A stretch of 64,000 bases of DNA from an uncultured Pseudomonadota bacterium (GTDB lineage: Bacteria; Oederibacteriota; Muellerivitia; Muellerivitales; Muellerivitaceae). The notes under the pieces were generated by a model that did no database searches, was not told where the DNA came from, and saw only the letters and a program-made list of their open reading frames with translations. Shown here one piece after another: positions 22,632-43,528 of this stretch; within the stretch, counting starts at the first letter, position 1; each line of letters begins with the position of its first letter. Both the position numbers and the translations under genes were made by a program. The stretch spans positions 32,001 through 96,000 of the forward strand of contig CAVYRH010000005.1 of assembly GCA_963770835.1 (NCBI GenBank), written 5' to 3'.

Positions 22632-24818
22632 ATGAAGCGCCGGTTTTTCCGGCGCGGGAGAGGCCGTCCATTGCGACATATTCAATCATGCCTTAACGCT
22701 TTATTTGGCGCTTCCCGGGTGGCGTTTTATCAGACTTGGCTGAGGTTAGCTTTCCTTTTAGCGGTACCCGTAGTGGCCGGCGCCCAAAGCGGCCCTACGA
22801 CCCAATTGATTTTTGGGCAACCGAATTCCTTTGGAATTGGCCCAAGGGCCATGGGCATGGGTGGCGCCTTCACCGCTGTGGCGGATGACGCCTCAGCCGC
22901 TTATTGGAATGCCGCGGGTTTGGCCCAACTTTCTTCCTACGAAATTTCGCTCTCCAGCGCGCCCGTTTATTTCGATAATATTTCACCCCAACCGCCGACC
23001 GTTTCTAATCCCCCCTCCTGGCAGGGCTTTGATTTTCCCTGGTATGAATCCTTACAATTCATGTTTCCCATAGCCAAAGAGAATACGCTGGGGATATCCC
23101 TTTTCCGGCCCTTTCACCCCCAAATGGATTATTTTCCAGGACAGCCTAATTTGAGTACTGCGGATCGGGAGGAAGCTAGTTATATCCTCAATCCTACTTT
23201 TCAGGAGAGCATTATCCAGCTATCCTATGCCGCCCGGTTATCGGCGGTGAGAAATTTCTCCGTGGGTATCAGCGTTAAACGGATCACGAATGATCCCTAT
23301 TATCTCCTACCTGGCCCGCCAGGTTTGGTGGGCCAGGTACCAAGCGCCCCCCGAGTCATCGGTTATGGACTCGACCTGGGCCTTTTGTACCGAATTCCTA
23401 TTACGAAGTATTCCGAAGAATTGCGCGTCGGATTGGCCATCAACAACTTGGTGGCGAATGTCACCTATCCCAACGGTATCAATGTGGTGGACGTGCCCAG
23501 TGGTAATACTTCTGCTGTTAGCATTGGCGGCGGCACAAACATACAAATACCTCCCCAAATCACCCTCGGCTTGGCTTATAAAAATGACTTCCTTTTTAAG
23601 ATTCGCAACATTACGGCGTTTGATTTCGATCAAATATCGGATCCGGATTTTACAAACGCTTATAACAAATACATTCGCTTCGGAACCGAGTTTTGGTTTT
23701 TGAAGGATGTCCTTGGCGTGCGGGCGGGTTATTCCACGCCTTTAAGTAGTCCGGGGGATATTAGCATTGGAGGAAGCATTCGAGCTTTAGGCGGGGATTT
23801 CCAAATCGATGCCGCTTATCTTTTCCCGGTGGCTCCCCAAGCTTCCGTTTCCCAAGGGTCGGCTATTGGCACCTATTCCACCGGCGGGTATGATTTCGAA
23901 CCCTTTAACATCGGTATCGCCTACCGCTTTGGCGGCGGCGAAGAGATCCCGCCTCCTAAAGTTGGTGCTTTTGTCAGGCCATCTTCCTTTACGCCCTCGC
24001 AAGGTGAAAAAGCCACATTTTACTTAGACACGACCGAGGATGTTTCGGTTAACCGTTGGAGCGTTTTAATTTACGACTCTTCCAACCATTTGGTTCGTGG
24101 TTTAAGGGGAAGTGGCTCTCCGCCCACAAAATTGGTTTGGCAGGGAGAAAACGACCAGTACGAACCACTTCCTCCGGGGGTTTACACATGGTCATTCCAG
24201 GTCCTGGATAATTTGGATCATATCGGTTCCACGCCTGTTCAAACGGTTGAGGTTCTTGGCCCGCCGGAAGCGGGGGTCAAGGATCCCAGCAAGCTATTGG
24301 CACTGCGACAGCAACAAGCAGGACTTTTGGCCCAAGAACGGCAACAATTAAGCACTTTGGCCCAACTAAATCTCCAAAAATTGTTGGGAACTGAAGAGGC
24401 AACTCCTACCGTTACTACCCCTCCGGTGGAAGCCAATGGAAATACATTGGTTCCGGAGGCGGGAGGGGTACCCGCCATTGGGTTTACCAATTTGACCCCA
24501 GACCAGGTTTTAACAGCCCATTTTGATAAGAATTCTGCGGGAGAGACGACCGTGGCGATAAGTTACCGTTCCCAACTCACTTATGGGCCTTACCTTTACC
24601 AAGAGGCTGCTGATGTGATTAAAGCCAGCGTGAAAACCGTAGGAACCGGTTTAAAAGCCATAACGACTCGTGTATATTATGGGAAAAATGAATTGACCCT
24701 GGTAACACCCACGGAAGTCGCGGCTAATTATGCTACAGGCCGGATCGGCTCGTCACAGTTAATGCAATTATCCGACGTTCATATTAATGGCGTAAAGGTG
24801 GGACCGAATGTTCAATAA
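22632..24818 (+). CDS. PorV/PorQ(FadL)-like outer-membrane beta-barrel fused to a FlgD-Ig-like domain and an unknown C-terminal domain
   Basis: Signal peptide; GPRAMGMGGAFTAVADDASAAYWNAAGL; barrel ends IAYRFG; then WSVLIYDSSNHLVR...LVWQGEND...PPGVYT. Confidence 0.75.
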   Translation: MKRRFFRRGRGRPLRHIQSCLNALFGASRVAFYQTWLRLAFLLAVPVVAGAQSGPTTQLIFGQPNSFGIGPRAMGMGGAFTAVADDASAAYWNAAGLAQLSSYEISLSSAPVYFDNISPQPPTVSNPPSWQGFDFPWYESLQFMFPIAKENTLGISLFRPFHPQMDYFPGQPNLSTADREEASYILNPTFQESIIQLSYAARLSAVRNFSVGISVKRITNDPYYLLPGPPGLVGQVPSAPRVIGYGLDLGLLYRIPITKYSEELRVGLAINNLVANVTYPNGINVVDVPSGNTSAVSIGGGTNIQIPPQITLGLAYKNDFLFKIRNITAFDFDQISDPDFTNAYNKYIRFGTEFWFLKDVLGVRAGYSTPLSSPGDISIGGSIRALGGDFQIDAAYLFPVAPQASVSQGSAIGTYSTGGYDFEPFNIGIAYRFGGGEEIPPPKVGAFVRPSSFTPSQGEKATFYLDTTEDVSVNRWSVLIYDSSNHLVRGLRGSGSPPTKLVWQGENDQYEPLPPGVYTWSFQVLDNLDHIGSTPVQTVEVLGPPEAGVKDPSKLLALRQQQAGLLAQERQQLSTLAQLNLQKLLGTEEATPTVTTPPVEANGNTLVPEAGGVPAIGFTNLTPDQVLTAHFDKNSAGETTVAISYRSQLTYGPYLYQEAADVIKASVKTVGTGLKAITTRVYYGKNELTLVTPTEVAANYATGRIGSSQLMQLSDVHINGVKVGPNVQ

Positions 24819-26358
24819 AGTTTCAGCCGCAGCCCTCTTGGCTTTTTTCTTGGCCTTTTCCATGGGATACGCGGCTTTTGACAAGGGCGGGGTTTCCGGT
24901 GACGGAGCCAGGCCCTTGGGTATGGGGGGGGCATTTGCCTCCATTGCGGATTCGGGTGATGCGATTTTTTACAATCCGGCCGGTTTGGTCCAGATCCTGA
25001 GGCCCGAGATATCCGGAATGGGAGCGGTTATCCTCAATGGCAAAGAGGATTTATTCGATCTGGCTTATGTCCAACCCTTTGGTGACCAAATGGCATGGGC
25101 TCTTTCCACCCAACAACTTCTCTTTACGGATGGCTCTGAGAACGAGAGGATCTATTTGGGAACATTTGCTGCCCCCTTGGCTATTGATAAATCCATTTCT
25201 TTTGGCTTGAACGTCAAATTGTACGGAGTGGATTCAGCCAGCCAGCCGGGTCAACAGGCAAGCGGACTGGGTATGGACATGGGCTTCCTCTATCATCTAC
25301 CCATTCTTGACCCCCGCTACGGAAAACAGATTAATATCGGGCTTTGCGCTCAGGATTTGGATACTACCATCAGGTATCAAGCTGGAAACGAAGACCCCGT
25401 GGCCTTAAGCGTTAAGGGCGGTGCCAGTTACGAATTCACCGATGATTTGGTCACAGCCTTCGAATTCGAAAGCATCAACGACCCTAATTTAGGCGACCAC
25501 ACCTTGCTTCATGCCGGTATTGAAGGATGGTTTTTTGAGGACCACTTGGGTTTAAGGACAGGTTACAGCGATTTCATGACATTGCCGGGACAGTTTACAG
25601 CGGGCATTAGTTACCGTTCCAACACCTGGGGCATTGATTACGCCTATATCGGCCATCCCCAATATTTGGGTTCCTCCCACAGAATTTCGGCTAGCTGGAG
25701 ATTCGGCGAATCATTCCTGGGTAAAGTGAAAAGCTTCATTCCGGAAGGCGTCAACGCTTATGTACAAGGTGATATTATCACCTTGAAATGGAATAGCTCC
25801 CCCTCGATTTCCTTGGCGGGCTATAACGTTTATTTCAGTAAAACATCCGGTGGCGGATACGTTAAGATCAATCAACAACCCATTAAGGCGAATTATTACT
25901 CCCTGCGGGGATTAGAAAAAAATACTCATTATTATTTTGTCGTGAGCTCGGTCACTAACACTATTCCACCAGTGGAAAGCCAATATTCTCGAGAGGTCCT
26001 CGCCGGAACCACTTCGGCTCCGGGTGCCCCGGTTGTAGTCCAAAGCGAAATCCAGAATGAGGGTGTTATTGACATCGGCAAACAAGCAGGGCTAGCAGGG
26101 TGGCCTGATCCGGCAAAGAACGGTTTGAAGGGATACAATATTTATATTTCGGAAGTTTCGGGCGGGCGGTTTGATAAGGTGAATCCACAGCCTATCGCCA
26201 ATGTCCCGACCTATCTTGTCCGGAAACTCAAGGTTGGACAGAGATATTACTTTAGTTTCACAAGCGTCGGAACCGATGGAACGGAAAGTGCCCATACGAA
26301 AGAATTGAACTTTGTGGCCCTCCCCTATAGTGCGGTGCTGTCAGGAAATGGCCATTAA
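24808..26358 (+). CDS. PorV/PorQ-like beta-barrel fused to two fibronectin type III domains
   Basis: GARPLGMGGAFASIADSGDAIFYNPAGL; barrel ends HRISASWRFG; two FN3 repeats (GYNVYFS...GLEKNTHYYFVVSSV and GYNIYIS...LKVGQRYYFSFTSV). Confidence 0.78.
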   Translation: MFNKVSAAALLAFFLAFSMGYAAFDKGGVSGDGARPLGMGGAFASIADSGDAIFYNPAGLVQILRPEISGMGAVILNGKEDLFDLAYVQPFGDQMAWALSTQQLLFTDGSENERIYLGTFAAPLAIDKSISFGLNVKLYGVDSASQPGQQASGLGMDMGFLYHLPILDPRYGKQINIGLCAQDLDTTIRYQAGNEDPVALSVKGGASYEFTDDLVTAFEFESINDPNLGDHTLLHAGIEGWFFEDHLGLRTGYSDFMTLPGQFTAGISYRSNTWGIDYAYIGHPQYLGSSHRISASWRFGESFLGKVKSFIPEGVNAYVQGDIITLKWNSSPSISLAGYNVYFSKTSGGGYVKINQQPIKANYYSLRGLEKNTHYYFVVSSVTNTIPPVESQYSREVLAGTTSAPGAPVVVQSEIQNEGVIDIGKQAGLAGWPDPAKNGLKGYNIYISEVSGGRFDKVNPQPIANVPTYLVRKLKVGQRYYFSFTSVGTDGTESAHTKELNFVALPYSAVLSGNGH

Positions 26359-26378: not shown

Positions 26379-27173
26379 ATGCCTAGTGGGCTTTACATAG
26401 CAGCGTCGGGAATGGACGCCACTTTGATGCGGCAAGATGTTATCGCAAATAACCTTGCGAACGTAAATACCATCGGCTTTAAACAAAACCGCGCCGTGGA
26501 AATTGCTTTTCCCACGTATCTCATTGCCCGCCTGCACGACCAACGGATGAGTGTCATGGATGGGACGGCTGAAATCCGGCCAAATATTGGGGTTATGGGT
26601 GGGGGCGTCATCCCCCAGGAGATCGCCACCGATTATTCGCAGGGAGCCCATATGGACACAAAAAATCCACTGGATTTTGCATTAAACGGTCCCGGGTTCT
26701 TTTCTGTTTTGAGTCCTGAGGGGAAGACCTTTCTTACCCGTGACGGGAATTTCAGTTTGGACGCCAATGGGCGTCTGGTCACCAAAGAAGGACTCCCGGT
26801 TTTGGGCCATAACGGTGAAATATACATTGATGGAAACCAAGTTTCGGTTGATGCGGAAGGGAATATCAGCGTGGATGGGAAGGCCCTGGATCAATTACTA
26901 GTGGTCAAAGTACAGGATGAGGGAAAACTTACGAAGATGGGCTATTCATTATTTGCGGCCGACCCCACGAATAAAATTGATATGTCGCCGGATGATATCC
27001 GGGTTGAGCAGGGAACCCTGGAGCAGTCCAATGTCGATTCCATTCGGGAAATGGTAAACATGATCGATACTTACCGCTCTTACGAGCTTAATTCAAGGGT
27101 CATTTCCTCTTATGATGACATGATGAACCTGGCGGCGACCACGATTGGGACGTTGCAGCCGACGACGGCTTGA
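26379..27173 (+). CDS. flgF: Flagellar basal-body rod protein FlgF
   Basis: IANNLANVNTIGFK, TRDGNF, LEQSNVD. Lies upstream of flgG. Confidence 0.92.
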   Translation: MPSGLYIAASGMDATLMRQDVIANNLANVNTIGFKQNRAVEIAFPTYLIARLHDQRMSVMDGTAEIRPNIGVMGGGVIPQEIATDYSQGAHMDTKNPLDFALNGPGFFSVLSPEGKTFLTRDGNFSLDANGRLVTKEGLPVLGHNGEIYIDGNQVSVDAEGNISVDGKALDQLLVVKVQDEGKLTKMGYSLFAADPTNKIDMSPDDIRVEQGTLEQSNVDSIREMVNMIDTYRSYELNSRVISSYDDMMNLAATTIGTLQPTTA

Positions 27174-27247: not shown

Positions 27248-27343
27248 CAACGGCCGGACTGCATTGCGGAGGCCGTTGCCGCCGCTGAATGACCGAAGCG
27301 GCGGAAAAATCGAAAGAGGTGCGATGCCGTACCTCGTTTTCGA
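27248..27343 (+). promoter_or_regulatory. Three tandem hairpins in the flgG leader (candidate cis-regulatory RNA)
   Basis: H1 caacggcc-GGA-ctgc-att-gcgg-A-ggccgttg (27248-27278); H2 ccgccgct-gaatgaccga-agcggcgg (27279-27304); H3 tcgaaa-gaggtgcg-atgc-cgtacctc-gt-tttcga (27310-27343). RBS GAGGAGG at 27349-27355. Confidence 0.7.
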
Positions 27344-27360
27344 ATCTTGAGGAGGCTTTT

Positions 27361-28155
27361 ATGCAGTCTTTGTACACAGCGGCCACTGGAATGTCCGCCC
27401 AACAGTTGAACATTGATACGATCTCTAACAACTTGGCGAACGTCAGCACCAGCGGCTTCAAAGCCCAAAGGGTGGATTTTCAGGACCTTATGTATCTCAA
27501 CTTGAAACCGGCGGGAACCCCGACTTCTCCCGAAACCAACACGCCGATAGGTCTTCAAATTGGCGAAGGAGTCAAACCGGTCAATACCCAGAGGATTTTC
27601 ACCGAAGGGGCAATCCAAAATACGAATAATCCGCTGGATATTCTCATCGAAGGAAACAGCGGCTTTTTTCAAGTGACGCTGCCCAACGGCCAAACGGCTT
27701 ACACCCGGGATGGTTCCTTCCAAATGGATGGAAATGGCAACATTGTGACGTCAGACGGTTACTTTTTGGAGCCACCCGTTCAAGTCCCAGCGCAAACCAC
27801 TCAAATCCAAATCACTCCCGCTGGCCAGATTATGGTTCAAGTTGCCGGTTCCCCCCAGCAAACCCAGATAGGCCAGATTGAATTGACCAATTTCGTGAAT
27901 CCTGCCGGCTTAGAGGCGATGGGTCACAATCTCTTCGTGCAAACGGCAGCCTCGGGTGATCCGATCCAAGGGACTCCGGGTTCTGTCGGCTTTTCCAATA
28001 TTCAACAGGGCTCCTTGGAATCTTCCAATGTCGATGTGGTCACGGAAATGGTGAATTTGATTGTGGCCCAAAGAGCGTATGAAATGAACTCTAAAGCCGT
28101 TTCAACGTCGGACGATATGATGTCGATCTTGGCTAATATGAAGCAATTCCCGTGA
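27361..28155 (+). CDS. flgG: Flagellar distal rod protein FlgG
   Basis: MQSLYTAATGMSAQQ, NNLANVST, YTRDGSF, LESSNVDVVTEMV. ATG 27361 follows a strong RBS. Confidence 0.97.
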   Translation: MQSLYTAATGMSAQQLNIDTISNNLANVSTSGFKAQRVDFQDLMYLNLKPAGTPTSPETNTPIGLQIGEGVKPVNTQRIFTEGAIQNTNNPLDILIEGNSGFFQVTLPNGQTAYTRDGSFQMDGNGNIVTSDGYFLEPPVQVPAQTTQIQITPAGQIMVQVAGSPQQTQIGQIELTNFVNPAGLEAMGHNLFVQTAASGDPIQGTPGSVGFSNIQQGSLESSNVDVVTEMVNLIVAQRAYEMNSKAVSTSDDMMSILANMKQFP

Positions 28156-31973: not shown

Positions 31974-32000
31974 TCAAGTTTTACCCCCTTTAACCGTTAG
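31974..32000 (+). promoter_or_regulatory. Putative sigma28 promoter of flgM
   Basis: TCAA(GTTT)-N15-ACCGTTAG, compared with the consensus TAAA-N15-GCCGATAA. Confidence 0.65.
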
Positions 32001-32079: not shown

Positions 32080-32373
32080 ATGCGTATTGAAGGTTTTCAA
32101 AACATCCCCGCGGTTCTCCAGTCCTTGAAGACTGGACCTTCCCCCAAGACGGAATCGCAAAACGAGTCAGTGGGAAGTGCGTCTTCTGTTTCTTTAAGCT
32201 CCTTCGCTGAGGTTTTCCAAAATCTCCAGAGGGAAGCGGCCCAGGCCGCAGTGATCCGGAATGAGAAGGTGGAGCAATTAGCCCAACAAACTCAAAACGG
32301 AAAACTTTCGGTGGATTTGGATAAATTGGCTTCGAAGTTGGTGGATTCCCAAGTGATCAACATCCAAGGATAA
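32080..32373 (+). CDS. flgM: Anti-sigma28 factor FlgM
   Basis: SVSLSS...IRNEKVEQL...VDLDKLASKLV. Located between the yvyF-like gene and flgN. Confidence 0.85.
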   Translation: MRIEGFQNIPAVLQSLKTGPSPKTESQNESVGSASSVSLSSFAEVFQNLQREAAQAAVIRNEKVEQLAQQTQNGKLSVDLDKLASKLVDSQVINIQG

Positions 32374-35212: not shown

Positions 35213-38200
35213 GTGAGCAACATAAGCGAGCTTTTAAATCTAACATCCACACCCCCCTCGGACACAACCGGGGTTTTTGGGGGGGCGGGCCCGGTTGCGC
35301 CGAAGAACTCCCAAAGCGGAAATAGTTCTTTTCAGGACCTTTTGGCCCGCATTGCTTCCCAAAAGGGAAACGCTAACAGCTCCAACCCTGTTTCGACTAC
35401 GCCTCAGGGAATGGCGGCGGGACAGGAATCGGCTCCAACTTCGATTATGCCGGGACAAGCCGGGACTTTCACGGCCGTTTCTGAAACAACCCTTGCCGTC
35501 ACTGAATCGGTAAAGGCCTCCAATCCCCAACAATTAGCCCAGGCGGAGCAGGCGCTGGCTTCCTTGGCCGTGGGGTTGGCCCACTTGATCAGCATCATGT
35601 CCCAAATGAACCAGGGGCAGACGCAGCAAGCCCAAGCGGCCCTGAAGGCTTTGGGAGCGGGCCCGAACGCCCTTCCCGGTATTCAGAACATCCTGAACAA
35701 CCTTCAGACCTTTTTCCAACAATTGCCGCCGAACCAGAACCCACTGAATCTCACGTCCGGCCAACAAACCGCTTTACTTGGCCAATTATTCCAACAGATG
35801 ATTCAAAACCAGCAGGTGCTTTTTGGCGTTACGCCCACAGCCCAAACCGGAACCAACGCCCCCCAAGCGGGCATCGGTGGAATCCCGCAAACGGCTGTCC
35901 TGCAAGTCCTGTTTTCGGAGACCCAAGCCAGCCTAACCCAGCAAGGAACCAACGAAGCTTCCCAGGTTTTCATCAACCTTCAGACCTTTAAAATGTCCGC
36001 TACGTTTATTCAGGAAGGCCAAGGATCCAACCTGCAGGCGCTCCCCCCCAATTCCCAAGCATTGTTGAACAACTTGAACCCAGCCATGCCAAACCTTCAA
36101 GCGGCGAATACCCCGGCCGTCACCCCGGCAAACTCAATGTCTTTGGCATATTCCCAAAATGATTTGAACCAAAACTTCAAAAACCTAGTCCAGCTCCTCA
36201 TGCAATCGGGAGTTGGGCAGGCGGTCCTGACAACTTTCATGCGGAGCCAACAAGAAGCGGGGAATTTGGCCCCTATGAACAACCAGGCCAATGCTCTCCT
36301 ACCCGTTTCCGCCAACAACCTCAGCCAGGCCCCCCCAGCTAATGTGGAAATACCGCCGGTGAACCCTACCGAATTGACAATGTCGACTGTCAATAACGCC
36401 GATGTCGCTCAAGGCCATAATCAACAAAACGCCACGCTCCTTAAAGCGCAAACAGTTCAGCTCCCCCCGGTAAGTGAAAACTTTGGGGAACCTCCCCAAG
36501 CCCAAAACCCAACAAATACCATACAGGGTCAGCCCCAAACGACTGTCAATCCGCTTCCAGCCGAAACAACGGGATTGAATCCAAATGAGGGAACGGCCTT
36601 AAACAATATGGCGGCCGGGTTGAATACCTTTACTCCCCTGACTTTTTCCACGGGCCCCAATAACACAGGGGGAAATCCGAAAGTCCAAAACCCAACTAAC
36701 ATCGCTCAAGTTCAACCCAAAACTCCCGTTAATCCGTCCCTGGGAGAAGCAGTGTCATTGGGCCAAAGCCAGGGGAACGCCGTGCAAACGCAGCCACAAA
36801 CGGCGGTTCAGTTGCCGACGCCCCAAAATGAGGGGTTGAATCCGAGTGAAATAGCTGCCTTAAATGACACCGTTGCCAAGATGAACGCCTCTGCTTTGCA
36901 CGACATCCAAGGCAGTATTGGCGGCAACAACGCGACACCCGACATGAATCTGACCCAAGGACAGGTTATAGCCTCTTTAACCGCAAACCGGCTTTCGGGC
37001 GCTCAACCGCCGACTTTTGGGAATCCCTCGGTTCCCATTGATGCGCCCGTAACGGCCCAACAAGTTCCGGCTTTAAATACTGCCGCTCAAAAGACCGCCA
37101 CGGCTCTTGCGGCTGTTCAACCAGCTCAAAACACAGGTGGTACTACAACGACCCCTTCCAACACCAACCAACAAGCGGTTGTTTTTTCGGGCCCGGCAAT
37201 TAATGTTTCAACTCTCTTGCAAGAACCCATCAACCAATCCGCTCCACCCATTCTTCAAGCGGCCGGCAACCCACCTCCTACAAACCAAGCCTCAGTCTTG
37301 AACAATATGGTTGAGACTGCTCCTGCCATAGGAAATATCAACATTAATTTGGCCTCGCTTTCTGCAATTAATACCTCCAACACGGCCGTTACCGCCAATC
37401 CGGGCCCGGCCCCGGTTACAGCTCCCAATACGGTTGTTCCGCTTCCGCAACCGGTGACTTTGCCGGTTGGTGCTAACCCCTCAACGACACAGGCCACCCC
37501 CCCTGGCGTCACTCCGGGCCTTGCCCCGGCTCTCCTGAACCAAACGATTAGTCCGCCTGCCACTTCGCAGGCGCCAACTCTTCCCGCTACCGCAGTGGTG
37601 GGAGAAGGTGTTAAAGCCGAGATCCCGGCAACGACTGTCCCGAGAAACGAAAACTTCGCAAATCCCTCTGCGGTGGCGAATGCCCAGCCCTTGGCTTCCG
37701 TGATTCCGATTTCTCCTGAGGCGGTGGCCCCAGCGGACTCGGTATTGAGTTCCGCCGCCGGTCTTGGAACTTTGAACGTATTGGATAAAAACGCGCCTAA
37801 TAATTCAGCCATATTGGAAGCCAATACCCTTTTGGGCCTATCCAGTGTGGCCAACCAGTCTTCCGGTACCCATACAACCTCCCCAGCGGCTATTTCCACG
37901 GCTCCGGGGTTCAACTTCGACACCGTCAGCCTTCTAGGCCAAATTTCCCAGCAAATTGCAGCTCAAACCACCGGGGCGAGAGCTGTTTCCCGGTTGAACT
38001 TCCAGCTTATTCCCGAAAGCCTGGGCCGCGTGACGGTCCAAATCGCACTTGTGGATCAGTCCGTTTCCGCCCGTATCTTGGTTACCAACCCAGAGGTTAG
38101 GGAGGCCCTCCAAACCCACATGGTGGACCTTAAATCGGCCCTCAACCAAGCCGGCCTTCAAATCGACCAGTTGCAGGTTCAGGTTCAGGGAGGAGGGGGT

Positions 38201-38365
38201 GGCAACCTCTTGGCCCAGTATTACCAGTATCAACAGGAGGGCTTTGGGTACCGCACACCGGTCTCCCCGCTCCTTAACGGCACCGAGGTAGCCCAAAACC
38301 CCGAAAATATTGGGGGTGCGGGGGTTTTATCGTCCCGGATGTCCTTGGTGGATGTCCTGGCCTGA
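35213..38365 (+). CDS. fliK: Hook-length control protein FliK (very long, low complexity)
   Basis: C-terminal FQLIPESLGRVTVQI...VREALQTHMVDLKSALNQAGL. Q/N/P/T/A-rich body. Lies upstream of flgD. Confidence 0.9.
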   Translation: MSNISELLNLTSTPPSDTTGVFGGAGPVAPKNSQSGNSSFQDLLARIASQKGNANSSNPVSTTPQGMAAGQESAPTSIMPGQAGTFTAVSETTLAVTESVKASNPQQLAQAEQALASLAVGLAHLISIMSQMNQGQTQQAQAALKALGAGPNALPGIQNILNNLQTFFQQLPPNQNPLNLTSGQQTALLGQLFQQMIQNQQVLFGVTPTAQTGTNAPQAGIGGIPQTAVLQVLFSETQASLTQQGTNEASQVFINLQTFKMSATFIQEGQGSNLQALPPNSQALLNNLNPAMPNLQAANTPAVTPANSMSLAYSQNDLNQNFKNLVQLLMQSGVGQAVLTTFMRSQQEAGNLAPMNNQANALLPVSANNLSQAPPANVEIPPVNPTELTMSTVNNADVAQGHNQQNATLLKAQTVQLPPVSENFGEPPQAQNPTNTIQGQPQTTVNPLPAETTGLNPNEGTALNNMAAGLNTFTPLTFSTGPNNTGGNPKVQNPTNIAQVQPKTPVNPSLGEAVSLGQSQGNAVQTQPQTAVQLPTPQNEGLNPSEIAALNDTVAKMNASALHDIQGSIGGNNATPDMNLTQGQVIASLTANRLSGAQPPTFGNPSVPIDAPVTAQQVPALNTAAQKTATALAAVQPAQNTGGTTTTPSNTNQQAVVFSGPAINVSTLLQEPINQSAPPILQAAGNPPPTNQASVLNNMVETAPAIGNININLASLSAINTSNTAVTANPGPAPVTAPNTVVPLPQPVTLPVGANPSTTQATPPGVTPGLAPALLNQTISPPATSQAPTLPATAVVGEGVKAEIPATTVPRNENFANPSAVANAQPLASVIPISPEAVAPADSVLSSAAGLGTLNVLDKNAPNNSAILEANTLLGLSSVANQSSGTHTTSPAAISTAPGFNFDTVSLLGQISQQIAAQTTGARAVSRLNFQLIPESLGRVTVQIALVDQSVSARILVTNPEVREALQTHMVDLKSALNQAGLQIDQLQVQVQGGGGGNLLAQYYQYQQEGFGYRTPVSPLLNGTEVAQNPENIGGAGVLSSRMSLVDVLA

Positions 38366-38441: not shown

Positions 38442-38888
38442 ATGGTTTCAGGAGTCAGCGGAAGTTCAAATTCGAATAGCAGCGGCGCCCTCACAAATGC
38501 GCTTGCCGCTACGTCGAATAACAACCAGTTCGTGTCCCAGAATACGTTTTTAACGCTTCTGATCACGCAACTACAGAACCAGGACCCGATGAACCCGCAG
38601 GACAGCAGCCAGTTTGTCACCCAGTTGGCGCAGTTTTCGTCACTGGAGCAAATGACGCAGCTCAACCAGAACTTCACCAGCGTTCTGGATAATTCAGCGG
38701 CGGGGCTGATCGGCCAGACAGTGACGGTGGCGGATCAGAGTTCGCAAAGCGGCTTCACGACCGGCCAAGTTTCCGGCATTGTTTATTTCGCCAATGGCCC
38801 GGCGGTCCAGATCAATGGAGTAAATTATCCATTGTCCGACGTCCAAAACGTCGGAACGGTTACCCCGAACGCGCCGACGGGTGGGTGA
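38442..38888 (+). CDS. flgD: Hook capping protein FlgD
   Basis: FLTLLITQLQNQDPMNP, QLAQFSSLEQM. Confidence 0.95.
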   Translation: MVSGVSGSSNSNSSGALTNALAATSNNNQFVSQNTFLTLLITQLQNQDPMNPQDSSQFVTQLAQFSSLEQMTQLNQNFTSVLDNSAAGLIGQTVTVADQSSQSGFTTGQVSGIVYFANGPAVQINGVNYPLSDVQNVGTVTPNAPTGG

Positions 38889-38937: not shown

Positions 38938-39345
38938 GTGGTTCAGCAAGTTAACTTTAACGATCCCCTAAACACGGTTGAGAACGTCCAGAACCAGGCC
39001 CAGTTGCAGATTATGCAACAACAGGCCAGCCGGGCGGCTGAAGCCGTTCAACCTTTTGATTCGATACTGCAGTCGACGGTTGACAAAGGGAATGGTTTAA
39101 AGTTTTCGGCTCATGCCAAGGAGAGATTGGGCCTGAGAAACATCAATCTTTCGGCGGACGACTTGAACCGCATGAACGACGCGGTAAACAAGGCGGCCTC
39201 GAAAGGCGCCCAGCAGTCCCTGCTGGTGATGGACAACCAGGCTTTCATCGTGAGCGTGCCGAACCGCACCGTGATCACCGCGATGGATAGCGGTAGCATG
39301 AAAGAGAACGTCTTCACGAATATTGATAGCGCGGTGATTGTTTGA
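38938..39345 (+). CDS. TIGR02530-type flagellar operon protein
   Basis: LKFSAHAKERL, IVSVPNRTVITA, ENVFTNIDSAVI. Canonical position between flgD and flgE. Confidence 0.9.
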   Translation: MVQQVNFNDPLNTVENVQNQAQLQIMQQQASRAAEAVQPFDSILQSTVDKGNGLKFSAHAKERLGLRNINLSADDLNRMNDAVNKAASKGAQQSLLVMDNQAFIVSVPNRTVITAMDSGSMKENVFTNIDSAVIV

Positions 39346-39346
39346 C

Positions 39347-39373
39347 TCAAGTAAAAAAAGAATCGGCCGTTAG
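39347..39373 (+). promoter_or_regulatory. Putative sigma28 promoter of flgE
   Basis: TCAA(GT)-N15-GCCGTTAG. Confidence 0.7.
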
Positions 39374-39426: not shown

Positions 39427-39480
39427 CGGGCTGGACCTCCTCGAGGGAGCCCGAAATCCGGATGGGTTGATTGCCCGTCC
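39427..39480 (+). promoter_or_regulatory. Two-hairpin element in the flgE leader (candidate cis-regulatory RNA)
   Basis: H1 cgggct-GGA-cctc-ctc-gagg-G-agcccg (39427-39453); H2 ggatggg-ttgattg-cccgtcc (39460-39480). RBS AAGGAGGA at 39490-39497. Confidence 0.7.
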
Positions 39481-39502
39481 AAAACTCTGAAGGAGGAAGA
39501 CC

Positions 39503-41518
39503 ATGGGTCTTCGAGACATGTTTAGCGCGATTTCCGGGCTCCAAGCCAATAGCACTTGGCTTGACGTGATCGGAAACAATATTGCGAACGTTAATACGGT
39601 AGCCTACAAGGCCAGCCGGGTTGAGTTTTCAGACCAGTTCAGCCAGACGCTCAACGGTGGAACGGGGGACAACCCCTCGGTCGGCTTGGGTGGAACTGAT
39701 CCTGAGCAGATCGGGTTGGGGACGAGGGTAGCCTCCATCCAAACCCTCTTCACCGAGGGAACGCTTCAAAATACCGGTATTTCCACGGATATCGCCATCG
39801 TGGGGAACGGGTTTTTGGTGTCCAAGAGCGGTGACAACACTCTTTTAACCCGCGCCGGGAACCTGACATTCGACAGCAACGGAAATCTGGTGGATCAAAA
39901 CGGCGGCCTGATCCAGGGCTTGACTGCCAGTGTGCAATACACTAACAAGACTATCTTGACAGTCGCGGATGGCGCGCCGGCAGCCCCTGGTCTCCAGATT
40001 ACTTCGGCCAAGTTGGGGTTCACTACCACCAGCGCCGCCGCCGCCCAGAACATCAATATTCCCCGGGATATGACCGAGCCCCCGAATGCCACGACGATCG
40101 TCAATTTTTCGGGCAACCTGGATTCCTTTCTGCAGGCCACGGATGCAGCCGATGGTGGGATTCTTGACATCGGAAGCAACGCCGTTCCGGCCGCTGCGGG
40201 GGCTCCTCCCGAAGCATTGCCGCTTGCGGACGCGTCGGTCGTACTAAACGCCAACGTTTTCAACAAAATCGCAGATCCTAATAATCCCCTTGGCCAAGTT
40301 ATCCAACAAGTGGCGGATGCTGGCGTCGAGGGTGCCGTTGGGAACGCCGATGTCGCCGCAAAGGGAAATGATCCAAATGTGAATACGAACATTTGGACCT
40401 ACGCCATGACCCAGCCGCCGACAACGGGGCAAGACGCCTTGACCATTCGGACGGATGCCTTCAACGGAACGGCTAACTTTGCCTGGGACCAGCAGCCTCC
40501 CGTCAATCCGGCCCACCAGGTCGTGGAGCAGGTTTATGATTCCGAGGGCAATCCCCGCCAAGTCACCATCAATTTCTACCAAGTGAATGATTTGGGCGAC
40601 GGGGGAATCAATAACTCAGCCGGCCCCAACCAAGTGGCTTACGCTTGGTATGCTTTTGACACCACGGGTGGAGCGCAACCCAGCTCAGCGAATATCGTTG
40701 GGGGAACAGGCCTCATGGACAGTGATGCCAATGGGAACCATTATGACCGCGGGGTGACCGGTGACGAATTCTATGGTGACCTTCTCGTTTTTAACACCGA
40801 TGGGTCTCTGCTTTCCACCGGCGGTGGAGAAAATGTCGCGGGCGCTAATGGACAGTTCCTGCAAGCCATGCCGGATATTTATCTTCCGCCCATGAACAAC
40901 GCGGGGGCGCCGGCTGTTGCTGGGAACCCGCCGAATCCCGCGAATGGAATGGGTGGGCCTGCTTCCCCTATTCCGACCCAGGGTGCCCAAATCACCCAGA
41001 TCACGCTCAATTTCGGTACTGCCGGAATTTTGGGTCAGGGACAAAGGAACGGACTTTACAGCGATGCGGAAGGAAGCTACCAGATCGTCAACGGTGTCAA
41101 CACCTACGTGCCAAATTCCACGGCTTACGCCAAGAGTCAAGATGGTTTTGCGGAAGGAGTCTTGCAAAGCGTAAACTTTGACGCAACGGGAACCATCCAA
41201 GGCACTTTCTCCAACGGCCAGACTTCGGCCATTGGGCAGGTGATTATCGCCATGCCAAACAACCCCGATGGGTTGAACAGCGTGGGGAATAATTACTATC
41301 AGGCTTCGGCGAATTCCGGGGCCATGTTCGTTGGTTTCGCCGGGCAGGACGGCGTTGGGACCATCCAGGGCGACACGTTGGAGCTTTCCAACGTCGACCT
41401 GACCACGGAGCTTTCCAACATGATCATCGCGCAGAGGGGATTCGACGTTAACTCGCGTGTGATCGCTGTTGAGAACGCTAACCTGCAGGTCCTGAGCCAA
41501 TTGGGCCAGGGTGGCTGA
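39503..41518 (+). CDS. flgE: Flagellar hook protein FlgE
   Basis: AISGL...VIGNNIANVNT, TRAGNL, VYDSEGN, LELSNVDLTTEL...AQRGF. Confidence 0.96.
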   Translation: MGLRDMFSAISGLQANSTWLDVIGNNIANVNTVAYKASRVEFSDQFSQTLNGGTGDNPSVGLGGTDPEQIGLGTRVASIQTLFTEGTLQNTGISTDIAIVGNGFLVSKSGDNTLLTRAGNLTFDSNGNLVDQNGGLIQGLTASVQYTNKTILTVADGAPAAPGLQITSAKLGFTTTSAAAAQNINIPRDMTEPPNATTIVNFSGNLDSFLQATDAADGGILDIGSNAVPAAAGAPPEALPLADASVVLNANVFNKIADPNNPLGQVIQQVADAGVEGAVGNADVAAKGNDPNVNTNIWTYAMTQPPTTGQDALTIRTDAFNGTANFAWDQQPPVNPAHQVVEQVYDSEGNPRQVTINFYQVNDLGDGGINNSAGPNQVAYAWYAFDTTGGAQPSSANIVGGTGLMDSDANGNHYDRGVTGDEFYGDLLVFNTDGSLLSTGGGENVAGANGQFLQAMPDIYLPPMNNAGAPAVAGNPPNPANGMGGPASPIPTQGAQITQITLNFGTAGILGQGQRNGLYSDAEGSYQIVNGVNTYVPNSTAYAKSQDGFAEGVLQSVNFDATGTIQGTFSNGQTSAIGQVIIAMPNNPDGLNSVGNNYYQASANSGAMFVGFAGQDGVGTIQGDTLELSNVDLTTELSNMIIAQRGFDVNSRVIAVENANLQVLSQLGQGG

Positions 41519-41703: not shown

Positions 41704-42732
41704 ATGGGTAGGAACCTCATATTCATCATTGTCGCTGTGACCGTTTTGAGCTTCGGATGCGTTAAAAAGTCACCAACCTCGCCGGCATCAGGCCAATGGG
41801 CGGAAGCTACCGCCAAGGCTTTCTCCTCCGGCCGTTACGGCTTGGCGGGTGCTGTTTTCAACGGCCAAATGTGGGCTATTGGTGGGGCGAGTGGTCCCGT
41901 AACGACTTATTACAGCGATGTTTATTCTTCTAGCAATGGTTCCAACTGGGATAAGGTGACGGGGAACGCCCCCTTTGGAGGTCGTTATGGCAGCCAAGTC
42001 CTTTCCTACAATGGACAATTATGGCTTATCGGAGGGAACAACAGCGGATCATTAATGAATGACGTTTGGAACTCCACGGATGGAAGGACTTGGAACCAGG
42101 TTTTGGCTTCTTCTACCACTGTAAGCCTCACCCAATTTAGCCCGCGGGAGGATTTTGGGGCTATGGTTTACAACAACGCCATGTGGGTTATCGGTGGTTA
42201 CAGCCAAGGTTCCAGTAATAATGATGTTTGGAATTCGACAAATGGAGTTACTTGGAACAGGGTATTGGCCAGTGGGGCACCTAGTGTGACCCAATTTTCT
42301 CAGCGGTGGGGTATCGCCACGGCTGTTTACAATAACGCCATGTGGGTCATGACAGGGGCCTATTCTATCGCTTCCAATACCGATCCCACAACGGTTTACA
42401 GCGATGTTTGGACCTCGACAACCGGTTCCACTTGGACGAGGGTTTCCTTGGCAAATGTCTTCGATTCCATCTACTACAGTCAGGGAGCGGTTTTTAACAA
42501 CCAAGTTTGGCTTACGGGAGCTTATCTTGCGGGTTGGGGTGCTCGAAACATTGCGGATTACACTACCGACGGAATCAATTGGACCGCCACTTCGGGGTCC
42601 TTCCCCTATAGGTTTTATCATTTAAGCCTTTCCTACAACAATGCTTTGTGGGTGATTGCCGGTTGTGATGATGTTTGCCAAACCCCAAACTGCGCAGTGA
42701 CCTATTTGAACGATGTTTGGTATACCCAATGA
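41704..42732 (+). CDS. Putative lipoprotein with Kelch-like beta-propeller repeats
   Basis: Lipobox-like LSFGC; repeats of WxIGG...(N/S)DVWxSxxGxxW. Confidence 0.8.
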   Translation: MGRNLIFIIVAVTVLSFGCVKKSPTSPASGQWAEATAKAFSSGRYGLAGAVFNGQMWAIGGASGPVTTYYSDVYSSSNGSNWDKVTGNAPFGGRYGSQVLSYNGQLWLIGGNNSGSLMNDVWNSTDGRTWNQVLASSTTVSLTQFSPREDFGAMVYNNAMWVIGGYSQGSSNNDVWNSTNGVTWNRVLASGAPSVTQFSQRWGIATAVYNNAMWVMTGAYSIASNTDPTTVYSDVWTSTTGSTWTRVSLANVFDSIYYSQGAVFNNQVWLTGAYLAGWGARNIADYTTDGINWTATSGSFPYRFYHLSLSYNNALWVIAGCDDVCQTPNCAVTYLNDVWYTQ

Positions 42733-42810
42733 TTTTGCGGGAAGGGAAGAGCTAGGCCGGTGGAAACCCTTGCCTATCTTTATGATTGAAAAGAAACCGG
42801 AGGCAAGACG

Positions 42811-43005
42811 ATGATCCCCGTCACAAGGCTCAACGGCCAGGAAGTTTACGTCAACGCGGATTTGGTCCTCTTTTTGGAAAGCTCGCCCGAAACCATCATC
42901 ACCTTGCAAAATGGAAAAAAAATTACTGTTAAGGAAACCATTCCCCAGGTCATTGACCGGGTGGTCGAATTTAAATCCCGTTGTTATCCAAAAGCCTCTC
43001 CCTGA
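42811..43005 (+). CDS. flbD: Flagellar protein FlbD (SwrD family)
   Basis: MIPVTRLNG...VNADL...ESSPETIITL..GKKITVKE. RBS GGAGG. Confidence 0.93.
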   Translation: MIPVTRLNGQEVYVNADLVLFLESSPETIITLQNGKKITVKETIPQVIDRVVEFKSRCYPKASP

Positions 43006-43017
43006 ACTATTACCAGT

Positions 43018-43528
43018 CCCCGCTATTAGCACTTTTGAACTTTTCAAGATGTTCCCGGATTCGGAATCCGCAAGGATTCACATGGAAAAACGCCGTTGGC
43101 CAGAAGGCCTGGTTTGCTCTTTGTGCGAAGAATCCAAGCGTATTGCCGTTCGTAAGGGTGGTTATTACCGCTGTAATGCTTGCCTTAATGACTTCACCAT
43201 CCGCACTGGTTCCATTTTCGAGAGAAGCCATGTTCCCTTGCACAAGTGGTTATATGCCATGTATCTCCTGATGACGGCTCGTAAGGGAATTTCTTCAATG
43301 CAACTTTCCAAGGAAATTGGAGTTACTCAAAAGTCCGCTTGGTTCATGCTCGGTCGGATTCGTGAAGCTTGCGGAAATGATATGTCCAAACTAAGTGGCA
43401 CCGTTGAAATGGACGAAACCTTTGTCGGCGGTTTAGAGAAAAACAAACACATGTCCAAAAGAACCCCTGGAACCGAAGGGCGAAGCACTAAGACCAAAAC
43501 GGAAGTCCTCGGAATGCGGGAAAGTTAA
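43018..43528 (+). pseudogene. Truncated IS1595-family (ISXO2-like) transposase remnant
   Basis: Zn ribbon CSLC...YRCNAC, HTH KGISSMQLSKEIGVTQKSAW, first catalytic motif VEMDETFVGG. Stops before the rest of the DDE domain. No clear start codon or IRs. Confidence 0.85.

Follow-up and report, generated by a model that had tools for sequence, protein, structure and literature searches.

Why should the messages of two flagellar genes, one coding for the distal rod and the other for the hook, begin with hairpins of the same architecture? The question is raised by a 64-kb stretch of bacterial DNA (hereafter the window, all positions being given on its + strand), whose content was recognised as a flagellar gene cluster by profile searches of its open reading frames. 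The flgG leader lies downstream of the flgF cistron (26379–27173). It starts with a core hairpin, H1 (27248–27278), which combines an 8-bp outer stem, a 3x1 internal loop with GGA facing a single A, a 4-bp inner stem and an ATT triloop. An accessory hairpin, H2 (27279–27304), carries a 10-nt GA-NY-GA-YN-GA loop on its stem, and a third one, H3 (27310–27343), is variable in sequence among relatives and falls outside the widespread motif. The Shine–Dalgarno (SD) sequence GGAGG (27351–27355) is outside the hairpins, and flgG (27361–28155) has its true start at the ATG in 27361. The start at 27289 given by the ORF caller is mechanical, since homologues begin at 27361, and so are the antisense ORFs called over the leader. 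The flgE leader shows the same core fold in its own H1 (39427–39453), then a family-specific H2 variant with a 5-nt loop (39460–39480), an SD (39490–39496) and flgE itself (39503–41518), which codes for a 671-aa hook protein.

Both H1 hairpins are found where the original prediction had placed them, with the architecture it described, and they fold better than shuffled sequences. The two-hairpin unit reaches a z score of -4.69 for flgG (0/200 shuffles as stable) and -3.17 for flgE (2/200), the value for a longer flgE stretch being only -1.87. The gene identities it had proposed are upheld as well: FlgG scores 361 bits against TIGR02488, above the cut-off of 253, and the top matches of the 671-aa protein are FlgE models, with scores below their cut-offs, in a gene positioned after flgD. 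The second hairpin which it expected ahead of the ribosome-binding site is present as H2 in both leaders, but in flgG H3 intervenes before the SD. Its proposal of a shared TGAYYG loop as a conserved feature had to be abandoned, because the flgE H2 of the window's family is a different covarying stem with variable 5-nt loops (TGATT, TTAAT, CTAAT, GGATT), the GA-NY-GA-YN-GA loop being the general form of H2.

How specific is this fold? A paired-pattern scan of the whole 4.58-Mb genome gave 19 loose candidates, and among the nine listed only the flgG and flgE copies are followed by an SD and a start codon. A covariance model, whose training alignment included the window flgG copy and not the flgE copy, retrieved these two copies only. 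The cmscan analysis against Rfam 15 detected a single tRNA in the window and nothing else at the gathering threshold, the best leader scores (E 0.43–7.3) being with unrelated families, which agrees with the initial view that no named family covers the element. The model of Termite-flg (RF01729) gave its best match (E 3.3) elsewhere in the genome, and the sequences differ; that of flg-Rhizobiales (RF01736) gave no match, and the repeated UUGGGAGA hairpin loops of that family are not present.

The rest of the window shows some features of its own. Matches to a sigma28-like pattern, T[CT]AA[AG]-N14-16-CCGTTA, occur at 31974, 38388 and 39347, where they precede an flgM-like ORF (32080–32373), flgD and the flgE leader, respectively; the last one (39347–39373) lies between the upstream TIGR02530 gene and the flgE leader and is a lead only, the loose pattern having 105 matches in the genome versus 52–60 in shuffles. 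FliK is unusually long (1050 aa, 35213–38365). Two genes that do not look flagellar stand directly before flgF (22632–26358), one coding for 728 aa with no Pfam match at 1e-8, the other for 516 aa with a fibronectin III domain, and akin genes also precede flgF in loci L218 and L219. A Kelch-repeat gene and a mobile-element-like ORF follow flgE (41704–43528), and an flbD-like ORF starts at 42811.

The motif extends far beyond this genome. Among 40 relatives, H1 is found 5' of flgG or flgE across the whole family, and also in the majority of the phylum's remaining families. A scan of GTDB genomes with an exact pattern, blind to genes, gave at least 120 matches. Among those listed, 92 have FlgE, FlgF or FlgG within 500 nt downstream, two further ones lie before an HTH-flgBC unit and before a flagellin region, and 26 are non-flagellar and chance-like. 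The taxa among the listed matches include Lysinibacillus, Niallia, Brevibacillus, Moorella and Sporomusa, Bacillota being thus represented, together with FCPU426, KSB1, Caldithrix, Latescibacterota, Poribacteria, Geobacter, Oligoflexia, Chloroflexi, Gemmatimonas, Melainabacteria and Eisenbacteria. The motif thus precedes hook and rod genes in many phyla. Features left free by the pattern separate the flagellar matches from the others: at least three extra H2 pairs are formed in 83/94 versus 1/26, and the central GA of the H2 loop is present in 94/94 versus 2/26.

An alignment was built from the window flgG copy and 89 of the 94 flagellar matches, the five left out being near-duplicates or lacking a downstream FlgE, FlgF or FlgG. 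Although several of the aligned pairs are preset by the search pattern, 91.3% of the cells are paired versus 74.8% after shuffling, and the covariation score is 0.445, compared with at most 0.158 for slid partners. The stems keep their pairing through compensatory changes, as had been claimed, with 286 double changes versus 114 in the shuffled alignments; the number of pairs showing a double change (12/18) is not in excess over shuffles. G-U cells outnumber A-C cells on the sense strand (112 versus 45), which points to the mRNA strand. This covariation, the sense-strand G-U bias and the lack of an Rfam family support the notion that hook and rod leaders have a cis-acting RNA structure in common. 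That the element is a real structured RNA is virtually certain.

Comparing the copies defines a core consensus for H1, GGCY-GGA-C(stem, variable loop)G-R-RGCC, of which the unpaired GGA opposite a single purine is the hallmark. H1 is the conserved core and H2 an accessory that is often lost; the two hairpins are independent, with a linker of free length. In one copy (L287, genome G145), the inner part of H1 is expanded by a long insert containing short direct repeats, whereas its base and H2 are kept. The SD lies 3' of the fold and never within it. The distance from the H2 loop to the start codon is about 22–210 nt in 120/126 scored loci, the six shorter values probably reflecting mis-called starts, and that from the end of H1 to the start is mostly 46–90 nt in flgE leaders. 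The start of H1 falls within 5 nt of the upstream stop codon in 35/95 loci led by TIGR02530 and in 10/76 led by flgF.

Rarer sites are found 5' of flgF, fliK, an unnamed gene in genome G029, HTH-flgB and flagellin (L313, L328). Some 3' copies, with no flagellar gene after them, follow flgF (L302, L317) or an unrelated low-complexity gene (L342). In loci L212 (G035) and L110, the motif stands 5' of a small HTH gene heading flgB-flgC-fliE-fliF, so that a regulator of proximal rod gene transcription may come under its control as well. Split flgF-like and flgG-like genes both keep a copy (L302 and L321 in G136, L317 and L331 in G076), one 3' of flgF and the other 5' of flgG. Two copies (L342 in G204, L193 in G029) stand outside the flagellar cluster beside low-complexity Ser/Gln/Thr-rich genes, one copy lying 3' and the other 5' of its neighbour; these genes are possibly unrecognised export substrates. 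H1 was found in 0/10 cases before second flgE paralogues. Such a stand-alone paralogue occurs in the window's family (G000:C10, about 101860–103750; L216, L217, L220–L225), devoid of the leader motif and often beside msrA and a small gene. Phage carriage was also considered and set aside: the sole match in the phage collection (L343, MT835480.1), although filed as a bacteriophage, is a fragment carrying a bacterial flgD-TIGR02530-motif-flgE block, and viral contigs yielded no match. An annotated TIGR02530 gene is described for phage G in the accessible part of a preprint (bioRxiv 10.1101/2024.12.16.628780); it was not recovered in our phage and viral searches.

What, then, could read such a leader? 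The gene directly before flgE codes for a TIGR02530 (Flagellar_put) protein (38938–39345 in the window, where it follows the hook cap gene flgD, 38442–38888), which appears to be the likely protein partner. The covariance model, TIGR02530 and FlgD were run on the same genome samples. Among 141 Bacillota genomes, 114 have FlgD, and within these the motif model matches 92/98 genomes with TIGR02530 versus 0/16 without it; in this as in the other co-occurrence counts, kin are not independent, three centre genomes were picked for carrying the motif and no p-value is attached. The six misses have degenerate copies before flgE (E 1e-6 to 0.08). In 15 of the 16 genomes without TIGR02530 the flgD-flgE junction is whole and bare; a loose H1 descriptor fires in 4/16 of the bare junction regions (one being that of G036), near its 15% rate in shuffles. 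Part of the co-occurrence reflects linkage, since the flgE copy abuts the TIGR02530 gene, and for this reason the unlinked copies weigh more. Copies away from TIGR02530 were found in 45 of the 98 TIGR02530-positive Bacillota (48 matches, 44 of them before flgG-like genes), and no motif was found at the flgG-like loci inspected in 10 of the 16 negative genomes.

Two further phyla were sampled. Among 71 Desulfobacterota genomes, 43 of which have FlgD, the motif is present in 4/4 with TIGR02530 and 0/39 without it. Of 40 Bdellovibrionota genomes, 35 have TIGR02530 and the model matches only nine, all within those 35; with filters off, E values below 0.05 were obtained for 14/30 fetched loci, and the loose H1 descriptor fires in 25/28 spacers versus 9% in shuffles. 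H2 is thus dispensable in this phylum, where it has often been lost and H1 kept. Fourteen of these 25 copies have GGU or GGC as the H1 bulge, the remainder including GGA. A second flgD-flgE locus of Sporomusa has the motif without an adjacent TIGR02530 gene, which is elsewhere in the genome, and this fits a trans-acting protein. In the window's phylum, the flagellated genome G036 has neither motif nor TIGR02530. There are some exceptions. TIGR02530 was not found in G013 (93% complete, 270 contigs), although its flgG copy is strong and an flgD match is present; conversely, G024 has TIGR02530 and no model match. G001 and G003, as well as G070 in Bacillota, have the motif without TIGR02530 and without flgD, probably through assembly gaps. 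TIGR02530 was found in 0/14 control genomes, including those of the flagellated E. coli, B. subtilis, Caulobacter and Thermotoga. As for other candidate partners, FlbD is present in 5/5 motif-less genomes and absent from one of five motif-bearing ones, and neither CsrA nor L7Ae tracks the motif. Taken together, TIGR02530 is probably the partner of the leader RNA.

The AlphaFold model of TIGR02530, obtained from a 53-sequence alignment, has a confident domain at residues ~52–135 (pLDDT 86–96) after a low-confidence N-terminus, and the predicted RelE/BECR fold spans residues ~52–125. All top 15 structural matches have the RelE/ParE/HigB/YafQ/YoeB fold, over 63–75 aligned residues (rmsd 2.6–4.5), with Z scores of 4.6–5.8, a range (under 8) which may mean only a common arrangement of elements. 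Foldseek returned nothing from the PDB at E<=0.001, the TIGR02530 profile had no real match among PDB sequences, and the ESM Atlas gave Flagellar_put clusters only. In a viral structure library, the weak matches include DUF4258 proteins and, at rank 10 (E 0.048), an RNA endonuclease of the site-specific type. Weak DUF4258 matches were also obtained for 24/53 TIGR02530 members. The invariant residues are S57, H59, A60, R63, R67, T114 and T127. Conserved features of BECR active sites are an N-terminal His and a Ser/Thr in the last strand (PMC3482391, as far as its accessible text goes), and both are seen here, H59 and T114 being invariant in 53/53 sequences. TIGR02530 is predicted to be a RelE/BECR-fold ribonuclease with a His/Arg/Thr active site. 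In the same 2012 study, a BECR RNase was tied to a Firmicutes flagellar operon and the authors asked whether it is itself exported or acts in the processing of flagellar RNA; this is probably the same family, for which the available part of that paper gives no RNA target or test. A 2026 flagellar census still lists the protein as of 'function unknown' in its accessible part (PMC13277936).

The explanation that we prefer, tentatively and with a little less than even confidence, is that the leaders are the recognition site of TIGR02530, which would act as a ribonuclease cutting at or near the H1 GGA and would thereby set the amounts of hook and distal rod. The protein would read H1, aided by H2, and cleave at or near its open GGA. 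The cut would send both flanking cistrons towards decay, including that of TIGR02530 itself, which would amount to autoregulation. Of all the steps in this explanation, the weakest is the sign of the effect. At a Lysinibacillus locus, among contigs assembled from RNA runs on mixed samples, one run has a gap over the motif and three cover it; as DNA may be present, these data are uninformative. The initial suggestion that the motif governs translation or processing is in this way supported, with TIGR02530 added as the likely partner and a leaning towards processing, which is favoured because the SD is always outside the fold and at a variable distance.

An appreciably less probable alternative, still to be taken seriously, is that TIGR02530 binds H1 and H2 without cutting and represses or activates translation of flgE and flgG, like FlbT or the ribosomal-protein autoregulators. 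Co-occurrence is the same as expected for cutting, nearly every copy of the motif lies 5' of a start, with the spacing of mostly 46–90 nt from the H1 end noted for flgE, and some RelE-fold proteins such as ParE are not RNases. The 35/95 loci with no more than 5 nt between the TIGR02530 stop and the first base of H1 fit too, since terminating ribosomes could there modulate H1. On the other hand, the SD is up to 200 nt away, the 3' copies have no downstream flagellar gene, and the invariant His and Thr suggest catalysis. Cutting is favoured over SD occlusion because the spacing is independent of the SD and 3' copies exist, so that, granted the partnership, we rather favour a TIGR02530 that cuts over one that would only bind. 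It is improbable that the RNA acts alone or with a housekeeping nuclease, by signalling stability or processing or by enhancing translation, the tie with TIGR02530 resulting from linkage and ancestry. The adjacency of the flgE copy to TIGR02530 and the case of G013 could be read in this way, but the unlinked flgG copies of TIGR02530-positive Bacillota, with none in the negative genomes, are hard to reconcile with it, as is the absence of any copy from the 39 flagellated Desulfobacterota devoid of TIGR02530, and unpaired bases that never vary suggest that something specific reads them.

Readings that do without TIGR02530 fare less well still. CsrA binds GGA within A(N)GGA motifs placed in apical loops or over the SD. 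An exposed GGA in a flagellar leader could recall such a site, placed under FliW/flagellin control, and flagellar mRNAs are established targets of CsrA (PMC4894983, accessible part). This is nevertheless extremely unlikely here: the H1 GGA lies in an internal loop after C-Y (C-Y-GGA-C), some lineages have GGU or GGC in its place, and CsrA was not found in the window genome (96% complete) or in seven other motif-bearing genomes, but was found in nine flagellated motif-less ones (14/30 genomes positive overall). The many invariant unpaired purines would suit a riboswitch sensing a small molecule or an ion and controlling hook and rod genes, and flagellar genes are known targets of c-di-GMP riboswitches (PMC1950547, accessible part). 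We consider this very unlikely, given that no Rfam riboswitch matches, that no expression platform is seen (U-rich tail in 3/90 aligned copies, SD outside), and that two independent hairpins with a free-length linker track one protein gene. In K-loops, the loop is closed by tandem G-A pairs. The H2 loop formally reads Y-GA-N6-GA-G, a tandem G-A pattern at the level of sequence, and could suggest binding by an L7Ae-family protein; the chance of this is very slim, as H2 is dispensable, no L7Ae-family match was found in G000 (the window genome), G044 and G045 among the five genomes searched, and B. subtilis and T. maritima have L7Ae and no TIGR02530. Equally faint is the prospect of an intrinsic terminator or of an element acting as DNA, such as a promoter or operator, although these are inverted repeats in intergenic DNA and H2 is followed by a U-run in a few copies (L302, L316). 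The covariation, seen while loop lengths are free, and the G-U bias on the mRNA strand argue against it, no terminator or sigma70 match was found at the flgG leader, and a U-tract follows only the same 3/90 copies.

How would cleavage by TIGR02530 be relieved when rod and hook are built? Over residues 2–53 of the protein, only F40 (53/53) and L44 are conserved; in the window they belong to the FDSIL codons F40–L44 (39055–39069), which hold the invariant FxxxL and resemble the FlhB gate-recognition motif of rod and hook substrates. FxxxL is the consensus wording of this gate-recognition motif. FxxxL/F/I/M occurs in 104/111 distinct TIGR02530 sequences, with the Phe at 25–42 in the 88 having a callable start, versus 392/1722 ORFs (23%) in the background. 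The sequence therefore shows the hydrophobic five-residue stretch of such signals, about 25–40 residues from the N-terminus, and the same pattern is seen in other proteins of the window (FlgD F36, FlgG F40, FliK F40, FlgE F42). In Salmonella, FlgD residues 36–40 make up the FlhB gate-recognition motif, and substrates carry it at least 30 residues from their N-terminus (PMC8983047, accessible part). TIGR02530 is thus possibly exported as FlgM is, and, if FxxxL is a signal, its export would switch the control off during rod and hook assembly. Alternatively, the Phe could be conserved for structural reasons or for oligomerisation. The full scenario, in which a TIGR02530 RNase would cut its own, flgE and flgG leaders in the cytoplasm, be pumped out through FxxxL to allow a burst of FlgG and FlgE, and rebuild after the late switch, is speculative and rather unlikely. 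If true, it would define an export-coupled checkpoint, a counterpart of FlgM at the mRNA level for hook and rod, spread over Bacillota and many other phyla and missing from model organisms.

The TIGR02530-leader pair is a likely unrecognised control step in flagellum building. Model matches in 93/141 sampled Bacillota genomes indicate that the element is common, and the absence of its partner gene from the control genomes, flagellated model organisms included, may explain why it was missed. Hook and distal-rod subunits are many and their operon neighbours few, and the pair may explain how one operon yields both. It also offers a candidate substrate for a protein of 'function unknown' and makes the question raised in PMC3482391, as worded in its accessible part, testable with one protein and a 60-nt RNA. 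No description of the leader RNA was found in the papers covered by full-text searches on motif or protein; the supplements of PMC5737381 and PMC11109978 and most of that of PMC8632094 may hold one. A term search for the motif was negative in the main texts of PMC5737381 and PMC8632094, in the supplements of PMC6429828 and PMC2864571 and in part of that of PMC8632094; 'flagell' has a zero count in PMC11109978 and PMC6429828. The leaders thus represent a widespread cis-RNA family that seems not to have been described, and a protein partner is likely dedicated to it.

Among known RNAs, flg-Rhizobiales and Termite-flg are the closest in kind, as structured cis-RNAs found by covariation 5' of flagellar genes (PMC2864571, accessible part). 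The former consists of repeated UUGGGAGA hairpins and the latter is a long multistem RNA, so that the leader motif differs from both in sequence and fold, and both have narrow ranges in that account, unlike the leader motif.

The mode of action that we envisage has its nearest parallel in T4 RegB, a RelE/YoeB-like protein performing His-based, site-specific mRNA cleavage, and TIGR02530 may work likewise (PMC3014915; PMC1702504, both as accessible), even though the structural likeness is weak, the viral match having an E value of 0.048. RegB cuts an unpaired GGA in intergenic mRNA (PMC3014915) and also its own message, for which the putative parallel would be the mRNA of TIGR02530 itself. The accessible descriptions also point to differences. 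RegB is a phage enzyme whose cut falls in the SD itself, which depends on S1 and which RNA structure blocks (PMC3014915), whereas in the leader a conserved hairpin, lying apart from the SD, keeps the GGA open, and the operon is a flagellar one of the host. Its target is GGAG/U followed by an A-rich 11-nt consensus, with which the GGA-C of H1 shares the unpaired GGA only, and the GGU and GGC bulges would speak against a strict RegB-like GGA target.

Protein–RNA control coupled to assembly is likewise exerted by CsrA-FliW at flagellin leaders and by FlbT-FlaF in Caulobacter; these act on flagellin, a late substrate, whereas the leader motif is found mainly at rod and hook genes. A comparable shift separates FlgM from TIGR02530. 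Both are small flagellar regulators, TIGR02530 having an N-terminal export-like region with FxxxL at residue 40; FlgM is a late substrate acting on transcription, whereas TIGR02530 would belong to the early substrates and have mRNA as its target.
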